From an uncultured Bacilli bacterium (lineage in GTDB: Bacteria > Bacillota_I > Bacilli_A > RF39 > UBA660): a stretch of DNA of 64,000 nucleotides. The position numbers and the translations under genes are program-made. This document shows positions 1,630-37,243 of this stretch, one piece after another (within the stretch, counting starts at the first letter, position 1; each line of letters starts with the position of its first letter). The notes under the pieces are model-generated. The model did no database searches and was not told the DNA's origin. It saw only the letters and a list, made by a program, of their open reading frames with translations. The stretch spans positions 54,384-118,383 of the forward strand of contig CALVYF010000001.1 of assembly GCA_944372055.1 (NCBI GenBank), given 5' to 3'.

Positions 1630-2339
1630 GACACATTCCCTCCAAATCTACGATTTCTTTTATTAAATTCTACGATTGCATCCTTAAAATCATTCGTTGT
1701 AAAATCCGGAAAATAAGTTTTAGGAAAATAAAATTCCGCATAACTAGCTTGATATAACATAAAGTTACTAAGTCTAAGCTCGCCACTAGTACGAATAACA
1801 TAATCTAACGGTGGTAAATCCTGATACAAATTATCATGCAATGTATCCAATGTAATATCGTAAATATTTAATTTTCCATCAACAACTTGTTGTGCTATTT
1901 TTTTAGTCATATCTAATATTTCAGTCTGACCACCATAATTAAGGCAAAGATTAACAACAGCTTCAGTATTATTTTTAGACTCCTCAGTGATTCTATCCAT
2001 AGCATCTAATACTTTAGCAGGAAGAGGCTCTCGTCTTCCAGAAAAAACAACTTTAATACCGTTCCTCATAAGATCTTGAAACTCATCTTTATAAAGTCTA
2101 ACAAATAAGTTCATTAAATAATCAACTTCTTTTTTTCCTCGTTTAAAGTTTTCTATAGAAAAAACATAAAGAGATAAATATTTTAATCCCATTTCTTTAG
2201 CATAAATACAAATTTCTTTTAAACGATGAAAACCAGCTTTATGGCCACCACTTCTAGACAGTCCCCTCTCTTGAGCCCATCTACCATTGCCATCAACAAT
2301 AATTCCTACATGTGTAGGGATAATTAATTCTTCATTCAT
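1626..2339 (-). CDS. uppS: undecaprenyl diphosphate synthase
   Basis: N-terminal HVGIIVDGNGRWA...ENFKR motifs typical of cis-prenyltransferases. Overlaps cdsA by 4 nt. Confidence 0.9.
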   Translation of the reverse strand: MNEELIIPTHVGIIVDGNGRWAQERGLSRSGGHKAGFHRLKEICIYAKEMGLKYLSLYVFSIENFKRGKKEVDYLMNLFVRLYKDEFQDLMRNGIKVVFSGRREPLPAKVLDAMDRITEESKNNTEAVVNLCLNYGGQTEILDMTKKIAQQVVDGKLNIYDITLDTLHDNLYQDLPPLDYVIRTSGELRLSNFMLYQASYAEFYFPKTYFPDFTTNDFKDAIVEFNKRNRRFGGNVS

Positions 2340-2373
2340 TATTCTTCTACCTCAAAATTATTATATAACAAGT

Positions 2374-2402
2374 AAAACAAAAAAGAAAGCAAAATTGCTT
2401 CC
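2374..2402 (-). terminator. intrinsic terminator after the KH-protein/rpsP operon
   Basis: Minus-strand RNA GGAAGCAAUUUUGCUUUC followed by UUUUUUGUUUU, immediately after the KH-protein stop codon. Confidence 0.5.
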
Positions 2403-2650
2403 TAGAACTTATCAATATCTATTTTTATATATTTGTTATCTTTCAAAGCACTACTTGCTTGTACTAGTGTACGAATAGCATTAGCACATCTTCCACCTTT
2501 ACCAATGACACGTCCCATATCATCTTCAGCAACAATGACTTGAATTAACATAACATCTTCTTCTTCAGTAGGAAACTCTTTTACACTAACAGCATCTCGA
2601 TCTACTACTAATGATTTAACAATTTCCTCTGTTAACTGAACTAAATCCAT
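2402..2650 (-). CDS. KH-domain RNA-binding protein (YlqC-like)
   Basis: 82 aa with the ...VIGKGGR... KH motif. Sits downstream of rpsP as ylqC does in Bacillus. Confidence 0.7.
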   Translation of the reverse strand: MDLVQLTEEIVKSLVVDRDAVSVKEFPTEEEDVMLIQVIVAEDDMGRVIGKGGRCANAIRTLVQASSALKDNKYIKIDIDKF

Positions 2651-2652
2651 AA

Positions 2653-2928
2653 TTACTTATCCTTCTTTTCTTTAGATTCAGTAAATTTCTTCATAATACC
2701 AGCTTTAGAAAATAAATTCTTAACTGTATCAGTAGGAATAGCTCCACTATTAAGCCATTTTAAAGCCACTTCCTCATTGATATTAACTTTAGCTTCTCCA
2801 ACAGGTGCATAAGTACCAATTAATTCAATATATTGACCATCTCTAGGACGTCTAGAGTCAGTAGCAACAATTCTATAAGTAGGTTTCTTTTTAGCACCCA
2901 TTCTTGTTAATCTAATTTTAACTGCCAT
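2653..2928 (-). CDS. rpsP: 30S ribosomal protein S16
   Basis: [35 protein letters not shown]... is a classic S16 N-terminus. The true start is the internal ATG at 2928, preceded by a GGAGGGA RBS. The 122-aa ORF in the track is an upstream over-extension. Confidence 0.9.
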
Positions 2929-3008
2929 AGTATCCCTCCGTTTCTTAAATACAGATATAGTATAATAGAAAAAAAGAGTGCTGTCAACCTTTTTTTGATA
3001 ACAAGCAG

Positions 3009-3033
3009 CAAAAAATAGCACTTATTAGTGCTA
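3009..3033 (-). terminator. intrinsic terminator after cotE
   Basis: Minus-strand RNA AGCACUAAUAAGUGCU followed by AUUUUUUG, just downstream of the cotE stop. Confidence 0.5.
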
Positions 3034-3038
3034 AATAA

Positions 3039-3569
3039 TTAGATTGGATTATCTTGAATAAAGTCATCACTTAACTCTTCATCAAGTGTATCATTCGAAG
3101 TTTCATCAACAATTTCGTCCCATGGGTCTTCTTCCTCATTGGCTTCAATCTTTACTTTAACATCTCCAACTAATTCTATACCAAGTTCTTTTTCAATAGT
3201 ATAGTGTATTTCATGATTATTAATAGTAATATCAGAACAAGTAGGTTGCTTTAGACTACGAACAATGATTTGTTCACCAGTAACATCTTCGTCTCGATTA
3301 CGCATATGTACCATTTCACGGTAAGTTTGCGTCTCTTTAATAACATCTGTCTTAGTATCACCATCATAAGAGTACCAAATATTAACATCATAACTACCAG
3401 AAATAATAATTTGATCCCCTTGTTTTTCCCCATGGAAATTATGATTAATAACCCAACAACCTAAAATTGTAGATGCTTCTTCTTTTAGTGATACAACATG
3501 ATCTGTAGTAAATAACTTTTTACCCTTACCGATAACCGCCTTTGTAACAATTTCTTTATAACTAGACAT
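3039..3569 (-). CDS. cotE: outer spore coat morphogenetic protein CotE-like
   Basis: 176 aa. MSSYKEIVTKAVIGKGKK...ILGCWVINHNF...SGSYDVNIWYSYDGDTKT... followed by a strongly acidic C-terminus aligns closely with my recollection of B. subtilis CotE. miaB(ymcB)-ymcA-cotE synteny matches Bacillus. Confidence 0.65.
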   Translation of the reverse strand: MSSYKEIVTKAVIGKGKKLFTTDHVVSLKEEASTILGCWVINHNFHGEKQGDQIIISGSYDVNIWYSYDGDTKTDVIKETQTYREMVHMRNRDEDVTGEQIIVRSLKQPTCSDITINNHEIHYTIEKELGIELVGDVKVKIEANEEEDPWDEIVDETSNDTLDEELSDDFIQDNPI

Positions 3570-3668
3570 ATCTACCCCTCCTAACTTAATGTATGCAATA
3601 ACTAATATATGTTTGACTAATATTTTGTTTTTTAAAAAATTATGTTACACTATTACAGGAGGTAAAAT

Positions 3669-4304
3669 ATGGCATCAGCAGTAATACATTTAGCAGTAGC
3701 AAAAGTACTAGAACCTTATTTTGACATAAAAAATAGAAAAGACTATTATCTAGGCTCAATTGCTCCTGATATTGCAAAACAGATAGGAAGAACAAAACAA
3801 GAATCACATTTTCTATATAACGAGAAAGAAGATGTACCAAATATAAAAATGTTTACAGATAAATATCCCCTATTTTATAAAAAAGATTTTGATTTAGGGT
3901 ATTATATACATTTATTTACAGATAAATTATGGTTTGACAAATTTTTAAATACTTTAGTACAAAGTAATTCTATTCGTTTAATAGATGGAACAATTGTAAA
4001 CATAGATCCAGACGAATTACCAAAATTAATTTATTCAGACTATACCAATCTAAATATTAAAGTAATAGAAGAATATAATATGGATTTATCACTTTTTTAT
4101 GAAAAATTTGAAAAGCCAGAAACTACAATCAATGAAGTTCCTATAGAACAGTTAAATATATTAATAGACAAAATGGGAATTATAATTGAAAACTCTACAA
4201 ATGAAAAAAATTATATTTTTGATATCTACTTAATCAAAGAATTTATTGAAACAACAAAAGAAAGAATACTAAAAGAAATAAAAGACTATGAACAAAATTC
4301 ATAG
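3669..4304 (+). CDS. hypothetical protein, possible zinc-dependent phospholipase-C-like fold
   Basis: 211 aa with N-terminal H-L-A-V-A, GSIAPD and HLFTD motifs that resemble the metal ligands of the Zn-dependent PLC family. A strong RBS (AGGAGGT) precedes the ATG. Confidence 0.35.
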   Translation: MASAVIHLAVAKVLEPYFDIKNRKDYYLGSIAPDIAKQIGRTKQESHFLYNEKEDVPNIKMFTDKYPLFYKKDFDLGYYIHLFTDKLWFDKFLNTLVQSNSIRLIDGTIVNIDPDELPKLIYSDYTNLNIKVIEEYNMDLSLFYEKFEKPETTINEVPIEQLNILIDKMGIIIENSTNEKNYIFDIYLIKEFIETTKERILKEIKDYEQNS

Positions 4305-4309
4305 TCTTT

Positions 4310-4630
4310 TTAATTAAATAATTGATAAAAATAATCGTTTAAATCATCTTCAACATAAGAAATCATCTGGTTTACTTTTTTTAAATGTCCTATATAAGTA
4401 ACATAAATTGGTATTTCATACAATTTATTCTCTACTTCTTCTAATTTTTCCCTATCTTGATAGCCATTCTTAACATATTCTTTCTGTAGAGTTTTTAATG
4501 TATCAATCAACTGCATTAGCTCTGCATTTTTTTTCATCTTTTCTTTTAACTTAATGCACTCTTGATAATCTTTACTATCTTTAATAACAGTAATAACTTC
4601 TTCTAGTTTTTTATTCAATAGCTTCACCAT
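4310..4630 (-). CDS. YlbF/YmcA-family regulatory protein
   Basis: About 106 aa, helical and charged. Located immediately downstream of miaB (ymcB), as ymcA is in Bacillus. Likely start is the ATG at 4630 with a GGAG RBS. The longer 114-aa ORF in the track overlaps the miaB 3' end. Confidence 0.55.
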   Translation of the reverse strand: MVKLLNKKLEEVITVIKDSKDYQECIKLKEKMKKNAELMQLIDTLKTLQKEYVKNGYQDREKLEEVENKLYEIPIYVTYIGHLKKVNQMISYVEDDLNDYFYQLFN

Positions 4631-6026
4631 CCAAACTCCACGTTTTAGCATCATTTATCTTAACCATAACTAAATCTCCAGGAGTAAGTTCTTTTTCACT
4701 AGAAAAATTAATTAATTTATTAGTATCACTATATCCATAATACATATGTTTTTTATCAGAAATCCCCTCTACTAGAACTTCAACTTCACGACCTTCAAGT
4801 TTTTTATTATTCTCTAAAAAATAATGATTAACAACTTCATTTAATCGTTGAAGACGTTCTTCTTTTTCTTTTTGAGAAACAGGGTCAGCTAATCTACAAG
4901 CAGGTGTTCCTTCTCTTTTAGAAAAGATAAAAGTAAAAGCATTATCATATTGACATTCACGAACTAAATCTAAAGTTTCTAAGAAATCCTCTTCAGTCTC
5001 ACCTGGAAAACCTACAATAATATCTGTAGAAATAGTAACACCAGAAACCCTATCCTTAATTTTATGAAATAACTCTAAATAACTTTCTTTAGTATATCTA
5101 CGTCCCATAAGTTTTAAAATACGACTAGAACCACTTTGTACTGGCAAATGAACACTAGGCATAATATTAGGATATTTCGCAATAACATCAATCATACAAT
5201 CTGTAAAATCCCATGGATGAGAAGTAGTAAAACGAATTCTAGGAATTCCCATATGTGCAACATCTTCCAATAAATTAGCCATAGTATAGTCATCATATAA
5301 ATCTTTACCATAGGCATTCACATTTTGACCAAGCAAAGTTACTTCCTTATATCCATCATCTACTAATTTTTGTACTTCTGCTAAAACATCTTCTTTTAAA
5401 CGACTTCTCTCACGTCCCCTAGTATAAGGAACAATACAATAAGTACAGAATTTATTACAACCATAAATGATATTAACATATGCCTTATAATCATTAACAC
5501 GAAGTACAGGTAATCCCTCAATCAAATCCCCTTCTCGAGAGAAAACCTCAATCTGTTGTTTATTCTCTTCAATAGCCTTATCTATAATTTCAGGTAATTG
5601 ATACATATTATGAGTACCAAAAACAAAGTTAACCCATTTATAATCTTTAAGAATAGTCTCAACAACACTTGCTTCCTGTGCCATACAGCCGCATAATCCA
5701 ACTATTAAATCTTTCTTCTCTTGCTTTAAATGTTTAAGTCTACCAAGCATTCCAAATGCTTTATTATGGGCATTTTCACGAATAGAACAAGTATTTAACA
5801 ATACTAAATCAGCATCCATATAATCATCGACTTTAGAAAATCCTAAAAAAGTAAGTAATGCTTCTATATTCTCACTATCATGCTCATTCATCTGACATCC
5901 ATAAGTCTTTAAATAAAATGTTTTTCCCCGATATTTATTTTTAACTTTATCATCTTCCTGAAATACCACTCTTTGATATGGTCTAATATCTCTTTTCCTA
6001 GCCTCTTTATAATCAGGTAAATGCAT
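4611..6026 (-). CDS. miaB: tRNA (N6-isopentenyl-adenosine-37) methylthiotransferase MiaB
   Basis: 471 aa. Radical-SAM CxxxCxxC (…YGCNKFCTYCIVP…), an N-terminal MTTase domain with conserved cysteines and a C-terminal TRAM domain. Confidence 0.9.
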   Translation of the reverse strand: MHLPDYKEARKRDIRPYQRVVFQEDDKVKNKYRGKTFYLKTYGCQMNEHDSENIEALLTFLGFSKVDDYMDADLVLLNTCSIRENAHNKAFGMLGRLKHLKQEKKDLIVGLCGCMAQEASVVETILKDYKWVNFVFGTHNMYQLPEIIDKAIEENKQQIEVFSREGDLIEGLPVLRVNDYKAYVNIIYGCNKFCTYCIVPYTRGRERSRLKEDVLAEVQKLVDDGYKEVTLLGQNVNAYGKDLYDDYTMANLLEDVAHMGIPRIRFTTSHPWDFTDCMIDVIAKYPNIMPSVHLPVQSGSSRILKLMGRRYTKESYLELFHKIKDRVSGVTISTDIIVGFPGETEEDFLETLDLVRECQYDNAFTFIFSKREGTPACRLADPVSQKEKEERLQRLNEVVNHYFLENNKKLEGREVEVLVEGISDKKHMYYGYSDTNKLINFSSEKELTPGDLVMVKINDAKTWSLDGEAIE

Positions 6027-6064
6027 AATACCACCTCACAAGTCACCAAAAATTATAACATAAA

Positions 6065-15520: not shown

Positions 15521-15781
15521 CTATTTGGCCTCAATAATTAATTTAATAGCAGTACGCTCTTCTCCATCAATTGCAATATCTTGAAAAGCAGGAATACAGA
15601 CTAAATTTTTCCCAGAAGGAGCAACAAACCCTCTAGCAATCGCTATTGCTTTAATTGCTTGATTTAATGCACCAGCACCAACTGCTTGAATTTCTGCAGA
15701 ACCTTTTTCTCGAAATACATTAGCAAGAGCACCTGCCACACTATTGGGATTAGACTTACTACTAACTTTTAATGTTTCCAT
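15521..15781 (-). CDS. spoVS: stage V sporulation protein S
   Basis: 86 aa, METLKVSSKSNPNSVAGALANV...IQAVGAGALNQAIKAIAIARGFVAPSG...CIPAF..I.IDGEERTAIKL. Near-identical in pattern to SpoVS. Confidence 0.9.
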   Translation of the reverse strand: METLKVSSKSNPNSVAGALANVFREKGSAEIQAVGAGALNQAIKAIAIARGFVAPSGKNLVCIPAFQDIAIDGEERTAIKLIIEAK

Positions 15782-18205: not shown

Positions 18206-19069
18206 ATGAAAAAAAGGAAAATAAAAAAAGGGCCTAAAATAGTTTTGTTTTTATTAATTGTTTTTTTAGTGATAGGAGGCCTAATCATAAATCAAAATAA
18301 CCAAGAAACAAAAGAAAAACCCAAAAAGCAAACAAAAGAGGAACAAAAAATAAACAAGTTAAAATCGATTCCATATTACAAAAAAGAATATCAAAAAAGA
18401 TATTTAGAATATCAAAAAGATAATCCTAACTTATCAGTAGAAAATATAGTAACTTATGTAAACATAGGAATAGATAAACCATACTACACAAACACAAAAC
18501 CATCAAAAAACTTAAATACAAATTTAATATTAGTAAATAAATACAATTATTTAACAGAAGACTACTTACCAAAAAATCTAGAACCAATCGATATAGCATA
18601 TGCCAGAAGCGGAATGCAATTAGTAAGTGAAGCAAGGTCTGCATTCGAAATACTTTCAGAAGACGCTAAAAAAGAAGGAATGAATATTATTGCTATGTCT
18701 AGTTATAGAAGTTATGACTACCAAGTGAATCTATACGATAATTATGTAGCAACGGATGGAAAAGAAGCTGCAGACACCTATTCTGCTAGAGCAGGATATT
18801 CTGAACATCAAACCGGTTTAGCAGTAGATGTCTATAATAAAGTTTTACCTTACACATCATTTGAAGAAACAGAAGAATTTAATTGGATGCAAGAAAATGC
18901 CTATAAATATGGATTCATTTTAAGATTTCCAAAAGATAAAGTAAATATCACAGGTTATCAATATGAATCATGGCATTATCGTTATGTAGGGAAAGAAGCT
19001 GCTAAATATATTCACAACCACGATTTAACATTAGAAGAATACTATGTAAAAAAGGTTGAGAAAAATTAA
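18206..19069 (+). CDS. M15/VanY-type D-Ala-D-Ala carboxypeptidase, membrane anchored
   Basis: N-terminal TM helix and Lys-rich linker. The C-terminal domain has ...SSYRSYDYQ...GYSEHQTGLAVDV...ESWHYRYVG..., typical of VanY/M15B zinc peptidases. GGTGA RBS before the ATG at 18206. Confidence 0.65.
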   Translation: MKKRKIKKGPKIVLFLLIVFLVIGGLIINQNNQETKEKPKKQTKEEQKINKLKSIPYYKKEYQKRYLEYQKDNPNLSVENIVTYVNIGIDKPYYTNTKPSKNLNTNLILVNKYNYLTEDYLPKNLEPIDIAYARSGMQLVSEARSAFEILSEDAKKEGMNIIAMSSYRSYDYQVNLYDNYVATDGKEAADTYSARAGYSEHQTGLAVDVYNKVLPYTSFEETEEFNWMQENAYKYGFILRFPKDKVNITGYQYESWHYRYVGKEAAKYIHNHDLTLEEYYVKKVEKN

Positions 19070-19665
19070 TTCTCAACCTTTTTTTCATCAAATTTTTTCT
19101 TAAAAAACAAATACAAATAATAAAAACAACTAACGACAACCCAAAATAATGTAACCAAATTACTAACCTGAACTAATGACAAAATCTGATTATTTTGATA
19201 TAAAAGCACGGTATCAGCAAAATCTATCTTACTATAAACAGCCAGTACAATAAACATTGAAAAAAGCAAAAAAACAATAATACTACAACAATAATTAAAT
19301 ACTTTTTTCATTGGTTTCATTTTCTTACTAAACATAGTAATGAAACACACTGCGACCATAAAAAGAAAAATAAAGAAATAAACAATAGTAGAAGGAAAAT
19401 AATAGTAATCCATAATTTTCATAATAAAAGAATCAAGACAGGTAATAGCATAAGAAGAAAAGATAAAACAAAATACACTAATACCACTAACAATAAAAAT
19501 AGCTAAAACAATAGGAACGATTTTATTTTTAATCTTAACATTAAAAACTAACACTAAAAATAATAAAAGGAAGAATAAAACTAGTTCAATAGACATAAAA
19601 GATGAAAATAATAATTGAAATATTATTTTCATCTTATCAAAAAGTCCTAAATCCATAGCCCACAC
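19066..19665 (-). CDS. polytopic membrane protein, unknown function
   Basis: 199 aa with about 6 hydrophobic helices and no motif I recognise. Confidence 0.35.
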   Translation of the reverse strand: MWAMDLGLFDKMKIIFQLLFSSFMSIELVLFFLLLFLVLVFNVKIKNKIVPIVLAIFIVSGISVFCFIFSSYAITCLDSFIMKIMDYYYFPSTIVYFFIFLFMVAVCFITMFSKKMKPMKKVFNYCCSIIVFLLFSMFIVLAVYSKIDFADTVLLYQNNQILSLVQVSNLVTLFWVVVSCFYYLYLFFKKKFDEKKVEN

Positions 19666-19671
19666 CTCCTA

Positions 19672-20346
19672 TTATACTAATTCTGCAATATAAATAGTTT
19701 GTGTAGTATCATCATTTTTTGTACAGGTAATTAATGTCAAAGTTGTCTTATTATAATTTCTATAAATCGCAACTTTTCCTGCTTTCGGAACCGTATATAT
19801 ATTCACAATATTATATCTATATCTTTGTCCTTGATATGTAATATAAGCAGAATCGCCAACATTTAATCGATATAGATATGCAAAAAACGAAATATAAGCA
19901 TCTCCAGAATGAGCCATCAACATTAAATTACCATTAGAAGTATCAGGCATAGTAGACCCTGGAACAACAGTTATGTTATATTCGATACTATTATACTTAG
20001 AATCAGTATTATAAAAACCTCTTTTTAATCCTATTTTAGGGATTTCAAGCACCCCAGTATATTTACTATAATCAATCTCTGTTTCAGCTTGCTGATAAAC
20101 AGTACCATCAGATACGTTATCAGCAACAGGAACGTCTATTTCCTCTTCTTCATCACTTGGTAAATTCAACCCAGCAATTGCAATTTTCATATTAGAATAG
20201 ACTTGCTCTTTCAAAAAAGCCAAATGATTATAAGAAAGAATGAAAAGACCTATAAATACAAGGAAAGAGCCGATTAATAATAACTGACTCTTTCGCAACC
20301 ATTTTCTTTTTTTATTGTTGTTTTTGTCTTGGTTTGGCATTTGCAT
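19672..20346 (-). CDS. sortase (class D/B-like)
   Basis: N-terminal TM anchor, LMAHSG (catalytic His region) and TLITCT (TLxTC catalytic Cys). Immediately downstream of, and overlapping, its putative substrate gene. No Arg is visible after the catalytic Cys in the short C-terminus. Confidence 0.65.
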   Translation of the reverse strand: MQMPNQDKNNNKKRKWLRKSQLLLIGSFLVFIGLFILSYNHLAFLKEQVYSNMKIAIAGLNLPSDEEEEIDVPVADNVSDGTVYQQAETEIDYSKYTGVLEIPKIGLKRGFYNTDSKYNSIEYNITVVPGSTMPDTSNGNLMLMAHSGDAYISFFAYLYRLNVGDSAYITYQGQRYRYNIVNIYTVPKAGKVAIYRNYNKTTLTLITCTKNDDTTQTIYIAELV

Positions 20347-21526
20347 AGATAATACCTACTCCGCATAACAATACGACAAGACCAATAAAGTAAACTGATT
20401 GTGCAATACTCATGCTAGTATCAGGTACTTCTGGAGTATAGTTAATAGGAATATCAAGATCATCAAAAGCTTTAACGTCAGTAGTAAATACAGTACTTAC
20501 AGTTTGAGCTCTACCAGCTTTGTATTCATAACCATCATATCCTCTAAAAGTTCCTTCAGCATGAAGTAAAACACTCTTATTTTCTTCAGTTACAGACTCA
20601 ACAGGAATTCTTACATAAAATCTAGGATTCTTTTCATTAACAGTTTCAATTTGTCGACCATTTTCATCAATTAGAATTGTTCCATCTGGAGCAGATTGAA
20701 TTTCAACTTTCAATGAACCTGAAACAAAGTTATTAGGATCACTATTAGTAATAGTAACTAAAGAAGTCTGATAATATTTTTCATCTTCTGTAATTGACAT
20801 CTCTTGATTAGCAAGACTAACAGTAATTGTACCATTTGCAGTAACATTAGATTGTCTAGCTTCAGCTACAATTGGAGCAATATAAGTATCATAGAAAGTA
20901 GCTTGACTAGTAGCTCCAGCACCACAACCATCTACACGACATCCTACAACTTCTGTATCCCATGAAAGACTAACAGCTGTTTTAATATTTTCTATATTAG
21001 CAACATTTCCAGAACCAGTAGCATTATTAGCTGCACCTGTCTCATATAAATATTGCCAAATAGTAGCTTGAGTAATCCAAGTTTGAACTTCATCTGGGAA
21101 TACTTGTCCTTTAGAATCATTAAATTTTACATGTGGAAAAGTATGAGCCATTACATATAATAAACCTTGATCTGTAATTGGCTTTTCCTTTTTCATAGTA
21201 ATACCACCACGATAATCAATATCACGCTCTAAACAGAAAATTGGAATTCCACTATTAGTAGAATACATTAATATTGGAAATCCTGTATTACTAACAATTT
21301 CAGTACCAGGCGCAGAAGTAGTAAAGCTCTCACCCAATCCTGTATCCTCAGGAATTTCAGTAACTGCCGCATAAGAAACATTAGTAACTCCTATTAATAA
21401 AAATGAAAAGAAAGATACTAATACCATAAATGCTGATAATTTTTTAGACAACTGTGATTTAAAAACTTGTTGAAATGTAGATTGATTTTTTTTGTTATTA
21501 TTATTTTCCATATATATCTTCTCCAT
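20312..21526 (-). CDS. sortase-anchored surface protein (VPDTS sorting signal), possible thioester-domain adhesin
   Basis: Signal peptide. The C-terminus ...TPEVPDTSMSIAQSVYFIGLVVLLCGVGIIYANAKPRQKQQ has a sorting motif, a hydrophobic stretch and a basic tail. VPDTS resembles the LPDTS motif of the B. subtilis YhcR/YhcS class-D pair. The N-terminal domain contains FCLERD and TQATIWQY, reminiscent of thioester-domain Cys and Gln motifs. Confidence 0.5.
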   Translation of the reverse strand: MEKIYMENNNNKKNQSTFQQVFKSQLSKKLSAFMVLVSFFSFLLIGVTNVSYAAVTEIPEDTGLGESFTTSAPGTEIVSNTGFPILMYSTNSGIPIFCLERDIDYRGGITMKKEKPITDQGLLYVMAHTFPHVKFNDSKGQVFPDEVQTWITQATIWQYLYETGAANNATGSGNVANIENIKTAVSLSWDTEVVGCRVDGCGAGATSQATFYDTYIAPIVAEARQSNVTANGTITVSLANQEMSITEDEKYYQTSLVTITNSDPNNFVSGSLKVEIQSAPDGTILIDENGRQIETVNEKNPRFYVRIPVESVTEENKSVLLHAEGTFRGYDGYEYKAGRAQTVSTVFTTDVKAFDDLDIPINYTPEVPDTSMSIAQSVYFIGLVVLLCGVGIIYANAKPRQKQQ

Positions 21527-21585
21527 AATACACCACCTTTATAAATATAATTATAACATAGTTTTTTATTTTTCAATATGTTTTT

Positions 21586-25992: not shown

Positions 25993-27345
25993 TTAAGCAA
26001 CTTTTTGATATTCATAACTCGCTGTCTCTGTAGAACTAGAATTAATACCCAATTCTTGTCTAATCTGATTCATCGTATTTTCTAATCCACCATTAAGAAC
26101 TGTAAGCTTTCTATTTTCTTCTAACAATCTAGAATTTTCATCCCTTAAGCTAGATACTTCTTGTATTTGAGACTGATATTTTTGAGTTTCTTGCTCCAAT
26201 TCCATGATTCTAGCTTCTAAATCTTTATTTTGCTCTTGTAATTGTCGATTTCTTTGAACAATATCACTAACTGCATGAACAACATCACCCATATCTTGAG
26301 TTTCCATAGAAGCTTCTTCACTATTATCTCCACTAGAAATACTATCTTCCTCTTTAGATATAGCCTCATCTACACCAGAAAAAGGTTCCATACTTTCATC
26401 TTTTATTTCAGTATCATCTTGTGCTTCTGTAACAACTGAATTTTCTACCTCTTTAGTTTTATCAATAGAAATAGGTGGAATTAAAGTTCCAAGAGAATCA
26501 TTTGATTCCTCAGCTTTCTCTTCTTCGAAAGACTCCGTGTTTTCAGCAGTAGAATCAGAAGCAGTTAAAGCAGCATCAATTTTATCTTTTGAAACAGAAA
26601 CACCTGTAACATCTAAAGTATCCTCTTTCTTTTCTTCTGTTGGCTTGATTTCTGGAAGCACTGGGTCAACAACTACTTTATCATTAGATGGCTCTTCTTC
26701 TGCCAAGATTCCACTTGGCTTTACCGCAAATAAATCAGTACGTGGAAATTGGGCAACAGAAGATTCAGGAACATTAGTACTACAATAGAAGGAATCATCG
26801 GTCATTCCAATAAAACTATAATATTGATTATCAAATATATTTTTTCCATCTAAAGTATAAACTGTACCTTCAGATAGCAAATCATTTAAAATAAACTTAC
26901 CATTAACCTCATCACCTTGACCATTCATTATTCTATTTAACTTATCTTTAATACTAGCATTAGCATTAACCATCTTTTCAGCAGAAAGAGGATCATTTCT
27001 AGAAGCAATAGCATCCAAAACACTTTTTGTTTTAGCTTCACTTCTAACAACCAATAAATACTTATCTTCTATTGTTTTTATAGATTTGTTTTCAAAAGGA
27101 ATAATTATATCACCTTTTTGATTGATAACCCCCAGGTGAGTACGAAGAATCTGAGAATCAATTGCTTCTTTTAACACAGTAGAAGCGATATAAAAACCAT
27201 TATCTAATTTTTTATCATTTAAAAGATAGTACACATCCTGTTTTGAACCTTCAGTGACCGTTACAAAATCACAATAGATATCTTGTTGACCATTATATTC
27301 AGAAACTTTACCTTTTTCAAACTTTACTTGTTTTTCTTCCTGCAT
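25993..27345 (-). CDS. hypothetical protein: N-terminal globular domain, acidic disordered middle, C-terminal coiled coil
   Basis: The acidic segment (…ESFEEEKAEESNDS…DDTEIKDESMEP…) is followed by heptad-like RNRQLQEQNKDLEARIMELEQETQKYQSQIQE.... Start at the ATG at 27345 with an AGGTGGTG RBS. Confidence 0.35.
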   Translation of the reverse strand: MQEEKQVKFEKGKVSEYNGQQDIYCDFVTVTEGSKQDVYYLLNDKKLDNGFYIASTVLKEAIDSQILRTHLGVINQKGDIIIPFENKSIKTIEDKYLLVVRSEAKTKSVLDAIASRNDPLSAEKMVNANASIKDKLNRIMNGQGDEVNGKFILNDLLSEGTVYTLDGKNIFDNQYYSFIGMTDDSFYCSTNVPESSVAQFPRTDLFAVKPSGILAEEEPSNDKVVVDPVLPEIKPTEEKKEDTLDVTGVSVSKDKIDAALTASDSTAENTESFEEEKAEESNDSLGTLIPPISIDKTKEVENSVVTEAQDDTEIKDESMEPFSGVDEAISKEEDSISSGDNSEEASMETQDMGDVVHAVSDIVQRNRQLQEQNKDLEARIMELEQETQKYQSQIQEVSSLRDENSRLLEENRKLTVLNGGLENTMNQIRQELGINSSSTETASYEYQKVA

Positions 27346-27492
27346 CGTCAAAACACCACCTTCTATCATACTCTAATCATATAAAATTATAATACCACAA
27401 ATCACTATCGAAAACAACTCCTTTTCCATAGATTTTTAACAAATAAAATTGCCAAAAAAAGAAAAAAAAGTTACAATGAAAATGGTGATAAA

Positions 27493-30527: not shown

Positions 30528-30552
30528 AAAGTACCATATTAGGTACTTTTAT
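30526..30552. terminator. bidirectional terminator between prsA and the convergent membrane-protein gene
   Basis: AAAGTACCatattaGGTACTTT followed by TATTTT, with an A run on the other side. Confidence 0.5.
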
Positions 30553-31966
30553 TTTGTTTAAAAATTACACAAGTATCATCAGAATAAATCATACGATACA
30601 CATGACTATCTTTCAAATAACTAAAGATACCGCTTTTTTTAGGAACAATAAAATAATCGAATTGATATTTAGTTAACAAATTAGTAAAACGATAACGAAG
30701 TCTAGAAATATCTTGGTAATCTTGATATATTTCTCCAGAATATAAATCAGCACGACCATCAATAAAAACAGGAATATCTCGATAAATTAAATAAGCTCCA
30801 TAATCATAATAGTTAAACAGCCTTTTAGGTTTTTCTTTTTCTAAAACTGTAATTGCTTCATCTGACAAAGTTTTTGTAGTAATAATACTAGAATAAGAAA
30901 AACTATGAACAAAAAACAAAAACAACAAAAATGAAAACATAAGAATTAGGAAACAAGAATAACAATCTTGTTTTCTTTCTGAAATATAATAAAATATAAA
31001 AAAACTAAATACAATATAACTAAAAAACCAAAAACGAATACTCTTTAATCCGAGATACAAAAATACTATATAAAACAATGCATCAATAAAACGTATCTTT
31101 TTTTTACTAAATACCATAACAACAAGAACAAAAAAAACAAATATAAAATAAACATAATGAGACAATTCATTTAAATTACTTGGTTGCCATTCTGCAATCG
31201 TAGAAAGCATCAGAGAATCTCCCATATTTTGATATGGATAAAATAACATTGTAATACCATGAGGATTAAATAAAATACCAAGCATACATAATAAAGCAAC
31301 TACAAGATAAGTAATAATTTGACTCCTAGTTAACCGCACTGCCTCAATCTTCCTACAAGAAAATTGAAATAATCCGGCAAAAATAGCGAAAAAACACAAC
31401 AAGTATGGCAAATTAGAAGACCCACCATGAATATTAGCCCAAAGCAAACTAACGAAAGGTAAAAAATATATTTTTTTAGAATTAGGGTGATAGAAAAAAT
31501 CAAATACAAGCCAAACACTAATAGCAAGAAACAAAAAACTAAGTAACTGCGGTCTCCCACTTAAGCCTGTAAAAATCAAAGAAAAAAAGATAGTCCATAA
31601 TAAAGCAAAAGGAACATTTTTTAAATACTCTCGTTTTTGTATAAAAAATAAAAATAATAACAAACCAAAAGAAACAGAAAAAACATAAATAAACAAATGA
31701 AAATCTCCAAACAAATAATCAAGACCATACAGTAATATTTCAAACAGCCATTCATGAGAAACCCATGGAGAATGAAAGAGACTCCATGAAAAAACATCTT
31801 GAGTCAAAATAGTAGAATGTTGAACCATATACTTCCCAGCTTTATAATGCCAAAAATAATCAATATCCATTCGTAAAAACAACATTAAAAATAACGAAAA
31901 AGAAAATAAAAAAGCAAAAAAGGAAAGCTCTAATTTATGATGCTTTATAAAACGCCTAATCTTCAT
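30539..31966 (-). CDS. polytopic membrane protein (about 11 TM) with C-terminal extracytoplasmic domain, unknown function
   Basis: 475 aa. The hydrophobicity pattern resembles a GT-C-type glycosyltransferase or O-antigen-ligase topology, but I recognise no motif. Confidence 0.35.
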   Translation of the reverse strand: MKIRRFIKHHKLELSFFAFLFSFSLFLMLFLRMDIDYFWHYKAGKYMVQHSTILTQDVFSWSLFHSPWVSHEWLFEILLYGLDYLFGDFHLFIYVFSVSFGLLLFLFFIQKREYLKNVPFALLWTIFFSLIFTGLSGRPQLLSFLFLAISVWLVFDFFYHPNSKKIYFLPFVSLLWANIHGGSSNLPYLLCFFAIFAGLFQFSCRKIEAVRLTRSQIITYLVVALLCMLGILFNPHGITMLFYPYQNMGDSLMLSTIAEWQPSNLNELSHYVYFIFVFFVLVVMVFSKKKIRFIDALFYIVFLYLGLKSIRFWFFSYIVFSFFIFYYISERKQDCYSCFLILMFSFLLFLFFVHSFSYSSIITTKTLSDEAITVLEKEKPKRLFNYYDYGAYLIYRDIPVFIDGRADLYSGEIYQDYQDISRLRYRFTNLLTKYQFDYFIVPKKSGIFSYLKDSHVYRMIYSDDTCVIFKQNKST

Positions 31967-34884: not shown

Positions 34885-34912
34885 AAATGAAAAAAGCAGG
34901 AATACCTGCTTA
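34885..34912 (-). terminator. intrinsic terminator after the HerA-like ATPase gene, separating it from ffh
   Basis: Minus-strand RNA AAGCAGGUAUUCCUGCUU followed by UUUUCAUUU. Overlaps the ATPase stop. Confidence 0.5.
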
Positions 34913-37243
34913 TTGATTACCATCTGTAGTAAGTGATACTAACGGTGTACCATTAGGAGTCACTACATCAATAGGATTTACATTTTGACTATTACTAGCA
35001 TCAGAACTACCAAAAGGCATAATAGATGGTTCAGCAGAACTAGTATTCTGATTAACATTTAAATTAGGAATTTCTAAATCTAAAGCAGAATCTTCTGTAA
35101 CCTCTATTAAAGGTTTAGAACTAGCAGGAATCTTACCAAAATCAGTTGGAACTGACGGAGTATCAAAAGAATTTTCTCCCGCTGGAGTATCGATATCATC
35201 ATCCATCTCACCATCACCAAAATCTAAATTGCTAAAATCCTGAAAAACGGAAGAAGTTGTAGTCTTAGGAACAGCATTTGTAACAACATCAGGCATAGCT
35301 TGAGATGATTTTTCTTCCGTTAAATTAAATAATGGTGTATTATTATTTGGAGTTGGATTAGAATCCATACTTGAAGAATTATGATTTAAAGTAGGATTTG
35401 ACATACTATTAGTCATAGACATGGACGAAGTAGTAGGAATCGCTGGAGAACTAACTTGTGTAGAAATACTATTCCTAGACTGACTATTACTATTACCACT
35501 CCATACCGCAACGACATCACAGTTACCACTCCATGGAGCAGGATTAGGCATTTCTAATTTACAAATCAACGGTATCTTAAAGGCCATACCAAATCCTAAA
35601 CACGTACCAGCTTGCAATGTCTTTTGTTTTTCAACAATTTCATCACTAATATTTGGAACCATCTTACGAATATAATCAACATCGGTAGGGTGATTCATCT
35701 TAAAAATCAAGAAATTAGAACATTGAGAAATAACCGTATCAGAAAGTTCTACTGGTCTTTGAGAAATAAGTCCAAGTAAAACACCATACTTACGTCCTTC
35801 TTTAGCAATACGTTCGAAAATATTATAACCAATCAAAAATCTATCCGTATCATTTTGAATATAACGATGTGCTTCTTCAACAACAATATGAAAAGGAATA
35901 CTAGCTCTATCTTTCAATCCTTTTGCAAATTCAAAAACAAGTCTTGAATAAATCTTTGTAATAACTTTTGCAAAATCATCATCGACATCATCCAAATTAA
36001 AATTAACCATTTGATATTTACGACCATTACTAATTAATAAAGAAGATAAATAACTTTCAAGAGAAACATAATCAGAAACATCAAAGAATTTAGCATATTC
36101 CCCAACAATTAAAGCATGTAAACGAACTTTAAGAGTAACAGCATCTCCATAAGTATTTTCATTTCTTAACCAACCCTCACTAATCAAAGTGAAGTTAAGT
36201 GCTTTCTCTAATGTATCTAAAGTATAGAAAACTCCGCCTTTTGGTTCGTAGTTATCATATTCATTCTTAATAAAGGAAGAAACATATTCTGTAAGCAAAA
36301 CACTTTCAGAAAATTGACCTTGAGAATCAATCAAAAAGCACTCACGGAATTTTCTAGTATAACCAATCCCTTGTACTGGGGCTTCCAAATTAAACTGTGG
36401 AGTAGAACAACTTGCTAAAATAGAAAATATTTCATTTCTCTTATTAGGAGATGTTTCATTTGTATAAAGAATTGTCATAATAGCTTTCGCAATTAAATGA
36501 TTTTTATAGTTATTAGCATCCATATCATTTTGAGAAAATATTAATGCCAATTTTAGCATTCTCTCAATAATTGGTAGTTGAGAATGATTCGTAGCCTGTA
36601 ATAATAAAGCTAAGTCACTTGCATTAAGTAACCAAATAGGTAAACGTAATTTTTCACCAATTCCGTCTACTTCATTAGTACTAAAAAAACGATAATGATA
36701 ATTTGGATTTATAGAATTCAAATTCTTAAACGCATTATAATATTCACCTGATGAATCAAAAAGTAATATATTTGCTTTATAAGGAAATAGTCTTTGATCA
36801 TGAAACATATTCTGAAAAAGGCGAGATACACCACAAGATTTACCACTACCACTGTTACCAAAAATAGCAAAGTGATTACTAAAGAAATTATTAACATCTA
36901 AATAAACTGGAAAGTCATTATAAAATGGACTAACACCAAATTTCATATATCCTGCTTTATCTTCTCCAACAATCATAGGAATTTCTGATTGATCAATAAC
37001 ACGAATAGAAGCATCCAAAGCAGGCTTACGAATAGTACCACCAATTAACCTTCCATCAACAATTTCACCCAAAAATCTCGCTTTAACAATATCTTTATCT
37101 AAATCATCAACTTCGCCTAATACCTTCTTGTCTTTATCCTCAAAAACAAGATGTAAATTCATCAAATTAACAGCTAAATTATCTGCATCCTTCAAACGAA
37201 TATTTGCAGAATGATCGCTAATATAAACAATTCTATCAAACAT
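34910..37243 (-). CDS. HerA/FtsK-superfamily P-loop ATPase (HAS-barrel + DUF87-like core) with ~230-aa disordered Ser/Thr/Asn/Pro-rich C-terminal tail
   Basis: 777 aa. An N-terminal ~110-aa beta-rich region is followed by Walker A FGNSGSGKS, a Walker B-like ILLFDSSGEY, then HIVVEEAHRYI and ...LISQRP... blocks characteristic of HerA/DUF87 ATPases. The last ~230 aa (…SGNSNSQSRNSISTQVSSPAIPTTSSMSMTNSMSNPTLNHNSS…) are low complexity. Confidence 0.6.
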   Translation of the reverse strand: MFDRIVYISDHSANIRLKDADNLAVNLMNLHLVFEDKDKKVLGEVDDLDKDIVKARFLGEIVDGRLIGGTIRKPALDASIRVIDQSEIPMIVGEDKAGYMKFGVSPFYNDFPVYLDVNNFFSNHFAIFGNSGSGKSCGVSRLFQNMFHDQRLFPYKANILLFDSSGEYYNAFKNLNSINPNYHYRFFSTNEVDGIGEKLRLPIWLLNASDLALLLQATNHSQLPIIERMLKLALIFSQNDMDANNYKNHLIAKAIMTILYTNETSPNKRNEIFSILASCSTPQFNLEAPVQGIGYTRKFRECFLIDSQGQFSESVLLTEYVSSFIKNEYDNYEPKGGVFYTLDTLEKALNFTLISEGWLRNENTYGDAVTLKVRLHALIVGEYAKFFDVSDYVSLESYLSSLLISNGRKYQMVNFNLDDVDDDFAKVITKIYSRLVFEFAKGLKDRASIPFHIVVEEAHRYIQNDTDRFLIGYNIFERIAKEGRKYGVLLGLISQRPVELSDTVISQCSNFLIFKMNHPTDVDYIRKMVPNISDEIVEKQKTLQAGTCLGFGMAFKIPLICKLEMPNPAPWSGNCDVVAVWSGNSNSQSRNSISTQVSSPAIPTTSSMSMTNSMSNPTLNHNSSSMDSNPTPNNNTPLFNLTEEKSSQAMPDVVTNAVPKTTTSSVFQDFSNLDFGDGEMDDDIDTPAGENSFDTPSVPTDFGKIPASSKPLIEVTEDSALDLEIPNLNVNQNTSSAEPSIMPFGSSDASNSQNVNPIDVVTPNGTPLVSLTTDGNQ

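Follow-up and report, generated by a model that had tools for sequence, protein, structure and literature searches.

Sortases with glutamine at the catalytic arginine position and their thioester-domain partner proteins in uncultured RF39-group Bacilli

The minus strand of a 64,000-nucleotide stretch of DNA from an uncultured Bacilli bacterium of the RF39 group (GenBank assembly GCA_944372055.1, contig CALVYF010000001.1, positions 54,384 to 118,383; this whole stretch is hereafter called the window) carries, head to tail, three open reading frames (ORFs) which code for a 404-amino-acid secreted protein, a 224-amino-acid sortase and a 196-amino-acid membrane protein (Table 1). The secreted protein harbours a thioester domain (TED) and ends in a VPDTS sorting signal, while the sortase has glutamine, Gln216, at the place of the arginine of the catalytic triad. 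With moderate confidence, and from sequence comparisons, we read this locus as a three-gene operon for the display of a thioester adhesin, the sortase of which belongs to an active His-Cys-Gln clade dedicated to adhesins of this type. What the comparisons show is the order of the genes, the identity of the domains, the conservation of residues and, throughout the clade, the association of sortases with TED proteins.

The His-Cys-Arg triad has been stated for all sortases, and its arginine is thought to bind the substrate and to stabilise the oxyanion (PMC8225981). In the window sortase, the tail which follows Cys208 reads TKNDDTTQTIYIAELV and contains no arginine. The first-pass annotation, made from the DNA sequence without database searches, had already pointed to the missing canonical residue, and it had not overlooked one, since a profile of 129 clade sequences (33-58% identical to the window sortase), when aligned with PDB sequences, places Gln216 on the arginine of Clostridium perfringens SrtD (4d70, …TCTNRGKDRYIV) and on that of Bacillus anthracis SrtA (2kw8, …TCVSVKDNSKRYVV). 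In agreement with this, the last strand of the structural model of the sortase has Gln216 as its second residue, which is the place of Arg197 in SrtA (PMC11231552). The alignment obtained with hhalign between the sortase profile and Staphylococcus aureus SrtA ends before strand 8, the beta7/beta8 loop being longer, and is silent on the position of the arginine.

The substitution is a property of the clade as a whole. His146 and Cys208 are present in all 129 sequences of the alignment, and position 216 is occupied by Gln in 128 of them and by Asn in one. When 1.8 billion cluster representatives were searched, 104 clusters had E values below 1e-30 and 804 had values below 1e-10, and the clade comprises over 100 clusters at 50% identity; among the 150 best matches, all intact C-termini are composed of TLITC, 5-8 residues, Gln and a hydrophobic strand, with Asn in the single exception. 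The codon of Gln216 was found to be CAA in 133 and CAG in 23 of 156 loci. Both glutamine codons are thus in use, and a single transition would turn either of them into an arginine codon, which indicates that the glutamine is maintained by selection. No description of Arg-less or Gln-type sortases was found in the open-access literature, which is absence of evidence only, and one member of the clade is entered at NCBI, as part of a metagenome-assembled genome (MAG), under the label 'MAG: sortase [Bacilli bacterium]'.

Several other residues near the active site (N119, N140, P134 and G148) are invariant or nearly so in the 129 sequences, and in the beta6/beta7 loop K188-x-G190 stands where P-T-D is usual. 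Lys is found at position 188 in 126 sequences and Arg in two, while at position 196 Arg occurs 110 times and Lys 12 times; according to the alignments, the solved sortases are non-basic at position 196 and the basic residues are specific to the clade. Judging from this distribution, Lys188 and Arg196 may compensate for the lost guanidinium. A stronger version of the same idea would be that the function of the arginine has been relocated, with Arg196 (or Lys188) entering the active site and Gln216 having a structural role only, and the prevalence of clade-specific basic residues at position 196 (122 of the 129 sequences) and at position 188 (128 of 129), where P-T-D and non-basic residues are found in the solved enzymes, is in line with it. 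However, position 196 varies, being non-basic in seven of the 129 sequences, whereas Gln216 is nearly invariant and falls exactly at the arginine position, so that a relocation seems improbable to us.

The association of the sortase with its substrate gene was followed through a scan with one genome per species, in which 471 genomes contained a relative and the best 80 were kept. All 80 represent uncultured gut Bacilli, a few records being labelled otherwise (e.g. Muribaculaceae). The closest genome is a MAG of Candidatus Faecimonas intestinavium, the sortase of which is 95% identical to that of the window (G+C ~30%). Candidatus Faecimonas corresponds to CAG-877 of GTDB (order RF39, family CAG-611), and its other named species has a genome of ~1.4 Mb with 28% G+C (PMC8035907). 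In 79 of the 80 loci the gene immediately 5' of the sortase gene encodes a protein of 356-474 amino acids that ends in a sorting signal, and it overlaps the sortase gene by 28-37 nucleotides in 78 of these loci and by 7 nucleotides in the remaining one. The 35-nucleotide overlap in the window suggests translational coupling of substrate and sortase. The neighbours in the order ssb-gnat-pdp-TED-srt-mem-vanY-pbp5 are the same in 59-76 of the 80 species, from which vertical inheritance of the cassette follows. Within this conserved frame the adhesin has diverged to 22-57% identity, as compared with 53-78% for the sortase and 54-80% for pdp.

The proposal of the first-pass annotation that a substrate and a dedicated sortase form one operon is thus upheld by the adjacent, overlapping ORFs and by the conservation of their pairing. 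A chance arrangement can be discounted, because each of the proteins has hundreds of conserved homologues and the gene pair occurs in 80 of the 80 species-level genomes retrieved. That the three-gene unit as such serves for surface display is, in our estimation, reasonably probable. Some variation of the cassette was noted among the species. One locus (L037, positions 2322-6035) contains three tandem TED paralogues 5' of the sortase gene; in the first of them (324 amino acids) the thioester Cys is replaced by Ser and the sorting signal is missing, and the other two (418 and 434 amino acids) carry FCYE and FCLD along with the signals TPDTG and VPNTG. Three further loci (L021, L025 and L069) have at least 1.1 kb of extra DNA between pdp and the TED gene.

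A second scan, carried out with a distant subgroup of the sortases (TLITC[KR]xNTNKQ, 35-40% identical to the window sortase), returned 80 metagenome loci. Here, too, the intact upstream genes overlap the sortase gene, by 13-28 nucleotides. They code for adhesins of 820-1300 amino acids with YC[ILV][EQ]P and TQxxIW in the N-terminal part and with a sorting signal composed of [EK]VP[NSDI]T, then G, E, D, L, S or Q, an ordinary variable helix and a Lys-rich tail. The Pfam TED model was over its threshold in nine of ten such adhesins (29-39 bits), and 5-10 SpaA stalk domains were found in addition. Since the genes for TED adhesins overlap the sortase genes in the distant loci as well, the pairing of Gln-type sortases with TED proteins is common to the whole clade. 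Genes for ParA, ParB, KilA-N, a 2598-amino-acid SNF2-type helicase and a PcfM-like protein next to the distant sortases (loci L161-L166) indicate a mobile-element context. The modules on mobile elements thus resemble the window cassette in the Gln-type sortase and in the overlapping gene for a TED adhesin with a VPxT signal, but differ from it in the 5-10 SpaA stalks and in the lack of a conserved third gene, the window cassette being situated in a conserved chromosomal context. The combination of a stalk-less adhesin and a membrane partner is specific to the chromosomal version of the RF39 group.

Loci L161-L166 are human-gut contigs (e.g. CARGCH010000011.1 of GCA_948979055.1) on which the Gln-type sortase accompanies a 909-amino-acid TED/SpaA adhesin and which look like a plasmid or an integrative element. 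DUF6664 proteins and a DpnD/PcfM-like protein are also encoded in the neighbourhood, and the sortase is very abundant, one 90% cluster comprising 1650 member sequences. No transfer genes were seen in the 20 kb read around these loci, and a tblastn search of the PLSDB plasmids with the sortase gave no match at 1e-8.

The window sortase itself matches Pfam Sortase (PF04203) with 59.8 bits (cut-off 26.6) and TIGR01076 (sortase_fam) with 45.9 (cut-off 39.35). Its AlphaFold2 (AF2) model, with a predicted local distance difference test (pLDDT) score of 88, has the eight-stranded beta-barrel of the sortase fold. A Foldseek search with this model led to 133 PDB matches at E <=0.001, the 50 best of which are all sortases, and comparison with sortases of classes C, D and A gave E values of ~1e-10 and root-mean-square deviations of 2.5-3.2 A over ~130 residues. 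The motifs MAHSG and TLITC are both present, the catalytic His following strand 4 and the catalytic Cys ending strand 7. The protein has a single N-terminal helix and no C-terminal membrane helix, and no DP[FWY] lid motif was detected in residues 60-100, where the linker is predicted to be disordered (pLDDT 53-61).

On comparison with the NCBIfam class models, the sortase was found to fit no defined class. None of the class models reached its threshold, the highest score being that of the class C model NF033745 (59.4 against 160), and the class D models NF033746 and NF058671 gave 33.8 against 165 and, for the SrtD exception, 45.3 against 140. As far as sequence relationships allow one to judge, the enzyme is a member of a large unclassified clade. 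It has much in common with the class D sortases (C. perfringens SrtD, 4d70; B. anthracis SrtC; Bacillus subtilis YhcS with YhcR, LPDTS, and YfkN, LPDTA): the barrel, the N-terminal anchor, the absence of a lid and of a C-terminal helix and the location of the enzyme gene beside that of its own substrate are shared, and 4d70 was the best single-sequence PDB match (E 2e-7). VPDTS also resembles class D signals, as remarked in the earlier annotation: at positions 2-5 the xPDT[S/A/G] and LPNTA-like signals of the substrate family are similar to those of that class (LPDTS, LPDTA, LPNTA; PMC8225981). Nevertheless, the window system differs from class D in the NCBIfam score given above, in Gln for Arg, in K-x-G for P-T-D and in the first residue of the signal, which is V, A or I and not L, and its substrate is a thioester adhesin instead of a sporulation-associated protein.

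The class C pilus sortases (Enterococcus faecalis Ebp SrtC, 24rr; Streptococcus pneumoniae SrtC-3, which acts on the RrgC signal) provided both the best class score and the top PDB profile match, and VPDTG, which is shared by many homologues of the substrate, is also found as the sorting signal of RrgC, a pneumococcal pilin (PMC11231552). These likenesses raise the question of whether an active sortase might use an acceptor other than the lipid II cross-bridge, either by joining adhesin to adhesin in a pilus-like manner or by attaching it to another envelope polymer or protein. The two or three tandem TED paralogues of some relatives would suit such an acceptor, as would the reduced peptidoglycan pathways of related orders (PMC10868615). 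However, apart from having Gln in place of Arg, the sortase scores 59 against a cut-off of 160 with the class C model and has neither a lid motif in its disordered linker nor a C-terminal helix, and pilin partners are lacking: the window holds a single substrate-like ORF, and no pilin domain was found there with Pfam. Moreover, genes for a class A penicillin-binding protein (PBP), a Mur ligase, a PBP5-type carboxypeptidase and VanY are present in the window, and peptidoglycan is therefore a plausible acceptor for the sortase. Taking all this into account, a different acceptor appears very unlikely.

As regards the substrate, the supposition of the first-pass annotation that it contains a thioester domain proved to be right. 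The Pfam TED model (PF08341) matches residues 96-168 at TED positions 2-82 with 23.5 bits (cut-off 22), and precomputed matches to the same family exist for many homologues. In the AF2 model, which was built from an alignment of 53 sequences, pLDDT exceeds 90 across residues 60-360. The only PDB entries retrieved with it by Foldseek at E <=0.001 were 6fwv (B. anthracis TIE), 6fwy (Enterococcus faecium TIE86) and 6fx6 (S. aureus TIE), with E values from 2e-12 to 2.5e-4, that is, the three structures which define Class II TEDs (PMC6194298). The predicted secondary structure, with helices 120-127, 145-162 and 211-223, strands across 234-317 and a hairpin 318-336/343-360, displays the beta-sandwich after helix 3 and the long hairpin by which the Class II architecture has been described (PMC6194298). 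At the sequence level the likeness is faint: a single-sequence PDB search (E <=10) produced a weak alignment with BaTIE (E 0.17), in which YCLTPD...TQLAVW covers the same span and which was used for motif spacing only, and the substrate profile had no match among PDB sequences at E <=1.

Cys98, Gln153 and Trp157 are invariant in the 53 homologues of the substrate, and the Cys and TQxxIW are likewise invariant in 38 diverse TED proteins that adjoin Gln-type sortases. In the first-pass annotation the Gln of TQATIW was taken for the partner of the Cys, at a spacing shorter than usual, and neither point stands. Helix alpha2 of the known TEDs carries the TQxx(hydrophobic)W motif alongside the bond, but the Gln of this motif does not form it; the Gln that does is found 171-204 residues beyond the Cys, in the last strand (PMC6194298). 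Gln153 was rejected as the thioester partner on these grounds, and the distance of ~55 residues between it and Cys98 is the ordinary one from the Cys to the TQ motif, as seen in the BaTIE alignment and in Pfam TED positions 2-82; it is normal because the Gln of the TQ motif is not the bond-forming one. Gln253, situated at the start of the beta-sandwich and aligned with Glu in BaTIE, was rejected as well. In the model, the likely candidate for the partner of Cys98 is Gln341, the sole Gln of the hairpin, which belongs to the stretch A340-Q341-T342-V343-S344 invariant in the 53 homologues. By homology with TEDs of the SfbI and BaTIE types, an internal thioester is probably formed between Cys98 and Gln341.

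The Class II TIE adhesins (BaTIE 6fwv, EfmTIE86 6fwy, SaTIE 6fx6 and TIEpLS20) share with the substrate the predicted fold, i.e. a bundle of three helices in the N-lobe, an inserted beta-sandwich and a long hairpin that leads back to the N-lobe, as well as the motifs [YF]C-hydrophobic-hydrophilic and TQxx(hydrophobic)W, and BaTIE, SaTIE and EfmTIE86 are displayed by sortases (PMC8092201), as is proposed for the substrate. In contrast to the TIE adhesins, the substrate has no CnaB/SpaA stalk (no Pfam match to an isopeptide or ester stalk domain was obtained, and the TED ends ~5 residues ahead of VPDTS), its Cys and candidate Gln are separated by 243 residues instead of 171-204, its signal is VPDTS and not LPXTG, and it is accompanied by a dedicated Gln-type sortase, not by the housekeeping SrtA. 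Two further Cys residues, separated by five positions, are found in GCRVDGCG (substrate residues 196-201, window positions 20924-20941), which belongs to an insertion in the N-lobe of the TED. The pair C.VDGC is kept in the majority consensus of close homologues; a disulfide and a metal site are both possibilities.

At its N-terminus the substrate is predicted, from the -3/-1 rule, to be cleaved between VSYA and the following A. The N-region of the signal peptide, in which F18, Q19, Q20, K23, L26 and L30 are invariant in the 53 homologues, is long (~30 residues) and helical in the model, and it may represent a specialised export or targeting signal, akin in idea to the YSIRK type. The C-terminus reads ...NYTPEVPDTSMSIAQSVYFIGLVVLLCGVGIIYANAKPRQKQQ and has the layout of an LPXTG-type signal, from which it differs at positions 1 and 5: VPDTS (residues 367-371) is followed by a hydrophobic segment (377-395) and the tail KPRQKQQ. 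On the ORF translation, this reading of the C-terminus by the first-pass annotation is accurate, as are its statements on the gene overlap, TLITC, FCLERD and TQATIWQY. VPDT[S/G] occurs in 104 of the 120 homologues listed. The family signal can be written as [VAIS]P[DNS]T[GSA]; LPNTA and LPDTG are met with now and then, but Leu is rare at position 1. In the species loci the motif x-P-[DNS]-T-[GSA] was found in 71 of 79, and seven of the eight deviating loci have lost the Pro and kept D-T-[GA] (VDDTG, TDDTG, VEDTA, VNDTA, TEDTG). Conserved as it is amid variable flanks, the sorting motif is, on this comparative evidence, under constraint.

The anchor helix which follows (AQSxYFIGLxxLLCGxGIIYANxKP) is near-invariant across ~80 species, while the adhesin as a whole falls to the low identities given above; it may contact the helix of the sortase or the third protein. 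The gene for this third protein lies directly 3' of the sortase gene in all 80 species loci (tblastn) and is absent from the mobile-element subgroup. Its product, of 190-198 amino acids in most species loci, has the conserved motifs FSSF, YxYFPS, FNY, LYxN and QxSN, and 34 members scanned gave no match in Pfam, NCBIfam or the PDB sequences.

An unusually conserved helix (YFIGLxxLLCGxGIIYANxKP), a conserved polytopic partner encoded 3' of the sortase and the loss of the canonical arginine would all be accounted for if the sortase-like protein were a pseudo-enzyme or a weak protease, the adhesin staying held in the membrane and the sortase-like and third proteins together acting as a docking or chaperone complex. 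Pseudo-enzymes, however, normally lose residues of the active-site type, and in this deeply diverged clade all 129 sequences retain His146 and Cys208, while N119, N140, P134 and G148 are invariant or nearly so. Furthermore, xPDT[GSA] is conserved just outside the helix, where the flanks vary, and in the distant subgroup, which has no third gene, the helix is ordinary and variable and the tail is rich in Lys. Loss of enzymatic function is, hence, considered an unlikely explanation.

For the active His-Cys-Gln sortase that we prefer, we infer catalysis, a cleavage site, an acceptor, the formation of the thioester and whatever role the third gene may have. The adhesin would be exported via the Sec pathway, whereupon its TED would fold and form the Cys98-Gln341 thioester for covalent binding of the target, and the C-terminal helix of the sorting signal would retain the protein in the membrane. 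Cys208 and His146 would attack the Thr370-Ser371 bond in the peptide region YTPEVPDTSMSIA, with cleavage after Thr370, and the acyl-enzyme would be resolved by an amine of a wall precursor, leaving the adhesin on the peptidoglycan. Hydrogen bonds to the substrate and the oxyanion, which normally come from the guanidinium of Arg, would here be made by the carboxamide of Gln216.

Several points weigh against this picture. As the arginine is counted in the triad of all sortases (PMC8225981), its absence could mean a lost activity or a changed reaction. The Pfam TED score of the substrate is barely over the threshold (23.5 against 22). Conservation of the sorting-signal helix goes far beyond that seen in ordinary LPXTG signals, and this helix could be a permanent anchor or bind a partner. 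Finally, patterns that include the Gln were used in part to retrieve the species loci and those of the distant subgroup, only the HMMER searches being unbiased in this respect. More tentatively still, the Gln-type sortases might be set apart as a separate, hitherto unclassified class, distinguished by a functional His-Cys-Gln site, by a VPxT-X motif (cleaved after Thr) which tolerates G, S, A, E, D, Q, L, N or K at X, and by strict genetic pairing with TED adhesins. Members of such a class would be carried by mobile elements in gut Firmicutes, and in Bacilli of the RF39 group, whose genomes are reduced, they would have become fixed in the chromosome within a core cassette that also encodes a new membrane partner.

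The features of the cassette are collected in Table 1. Upstream it is flanked by a gene for a pyrimidine-nucleoside phosphorylase, and downstream by genes for a VanY-type and then a PBP5-type carboxypeptidase on the opposite strand.

Table 1. Features of the sortase cassette, in coordinates of the window (TM, transmembrane; RBS, ribosome-binding site).
Feature	Position	Strand	Remarks
Weak promoter-like hexamer pair	21576..21547	-	Consensus scan only; no evidence of function
RBS AAAGGTGGTG	21531..21540	-	5 nucleotides 5' of the substrate ATG; read from the sequence
Substrate gene, 404 amino acids	20312..21526	-	Stalk-less Class II TED adhesin with sorting signal
Predicted signal peptide, residues 1-53	21368..21526	-	Hydrophobic segment 30-48
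Codon of Cys98 (FCLE)	21233..21235	-	Predicted thioester Cys
TQATIW motif, residues 152-157	21056..21073	-	On helix 145-162; auxiliary TED motif
Codon of Gln341 (AQTVS)	20504..20506	-	Candidate thioester Gln; tip of hairpin 318-336/343-360
Sorting pentapeptide VPDTS, residues 367-371	20414..20428	-	
Hydrophobic anchor (residues 377-395) and basic tail KPRQKQQ	20315..20413	-	
Overlap of substrate and sortase genes, 35 nucleotides	20312..20346	-	
Sortase gene, 224 amino acids	19672..20346	-	TM helix 20-38, acidic linker, catalytic beta-barrel 93-224
Codon of catalytic His146 (AHSG)	19909..19911	-	
Codon of catalytic Cys208 (TLITC)	19723..19725	-	End of strand 202-208
Codon CAA of Gln216	19699..19701	-	Canonical Arg position; start of last strand 215-223
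Third gene, 196-amino-acid membrane protein	19066..19656	-	~5 TM; ATG at 19656 after AGGAGG

Elsewhere in the window, the minus strand encodes a 777-amino-acid ATPase of the HerA/DUF87 type (34910-37243) and two proteins with no Pfam match, one of 458 amino acids with an acidic, coiled-coil-like sequence (25993-27369) and one of 475 amino acids (30539-31966). An 86-amino-acid ORF of the same strand (15521-15781; METLKVSSKSNPNSVAGALA...) appears to resemble the sporulation protein SpoVS; if this is correct, a reduced genome of the RF39 group would contain a gene related to sporulation.

A clade in which Gln has been fixed in place of Arg would, if its members are active, amount to a natural experiment on the role of the arginine, separating hydrogen bonding from charge, and such enzymes could add a new specificity (VPxT followed by a varied residue) to the ligation toolbox. 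In the related orders RFN20 and ML615J-28 no srtA or srtB was found, these having been scored as orthologues only, and a reduced surface display was inferred (PMC10868615). Annotation by srtA and srtB orthologues may, in turn, under-count sortases as divergent as those described here. The retention of a fast-evolving adhesin together with its own sortase in the RF39 group, the members of which have genomes of ~1.4 Mb and are known solely from metagenomes, would point to attachment to host or partner cells as a central part of the lifestyle of these bacteria, and the cassette provides a concrete surface molecule for their study.

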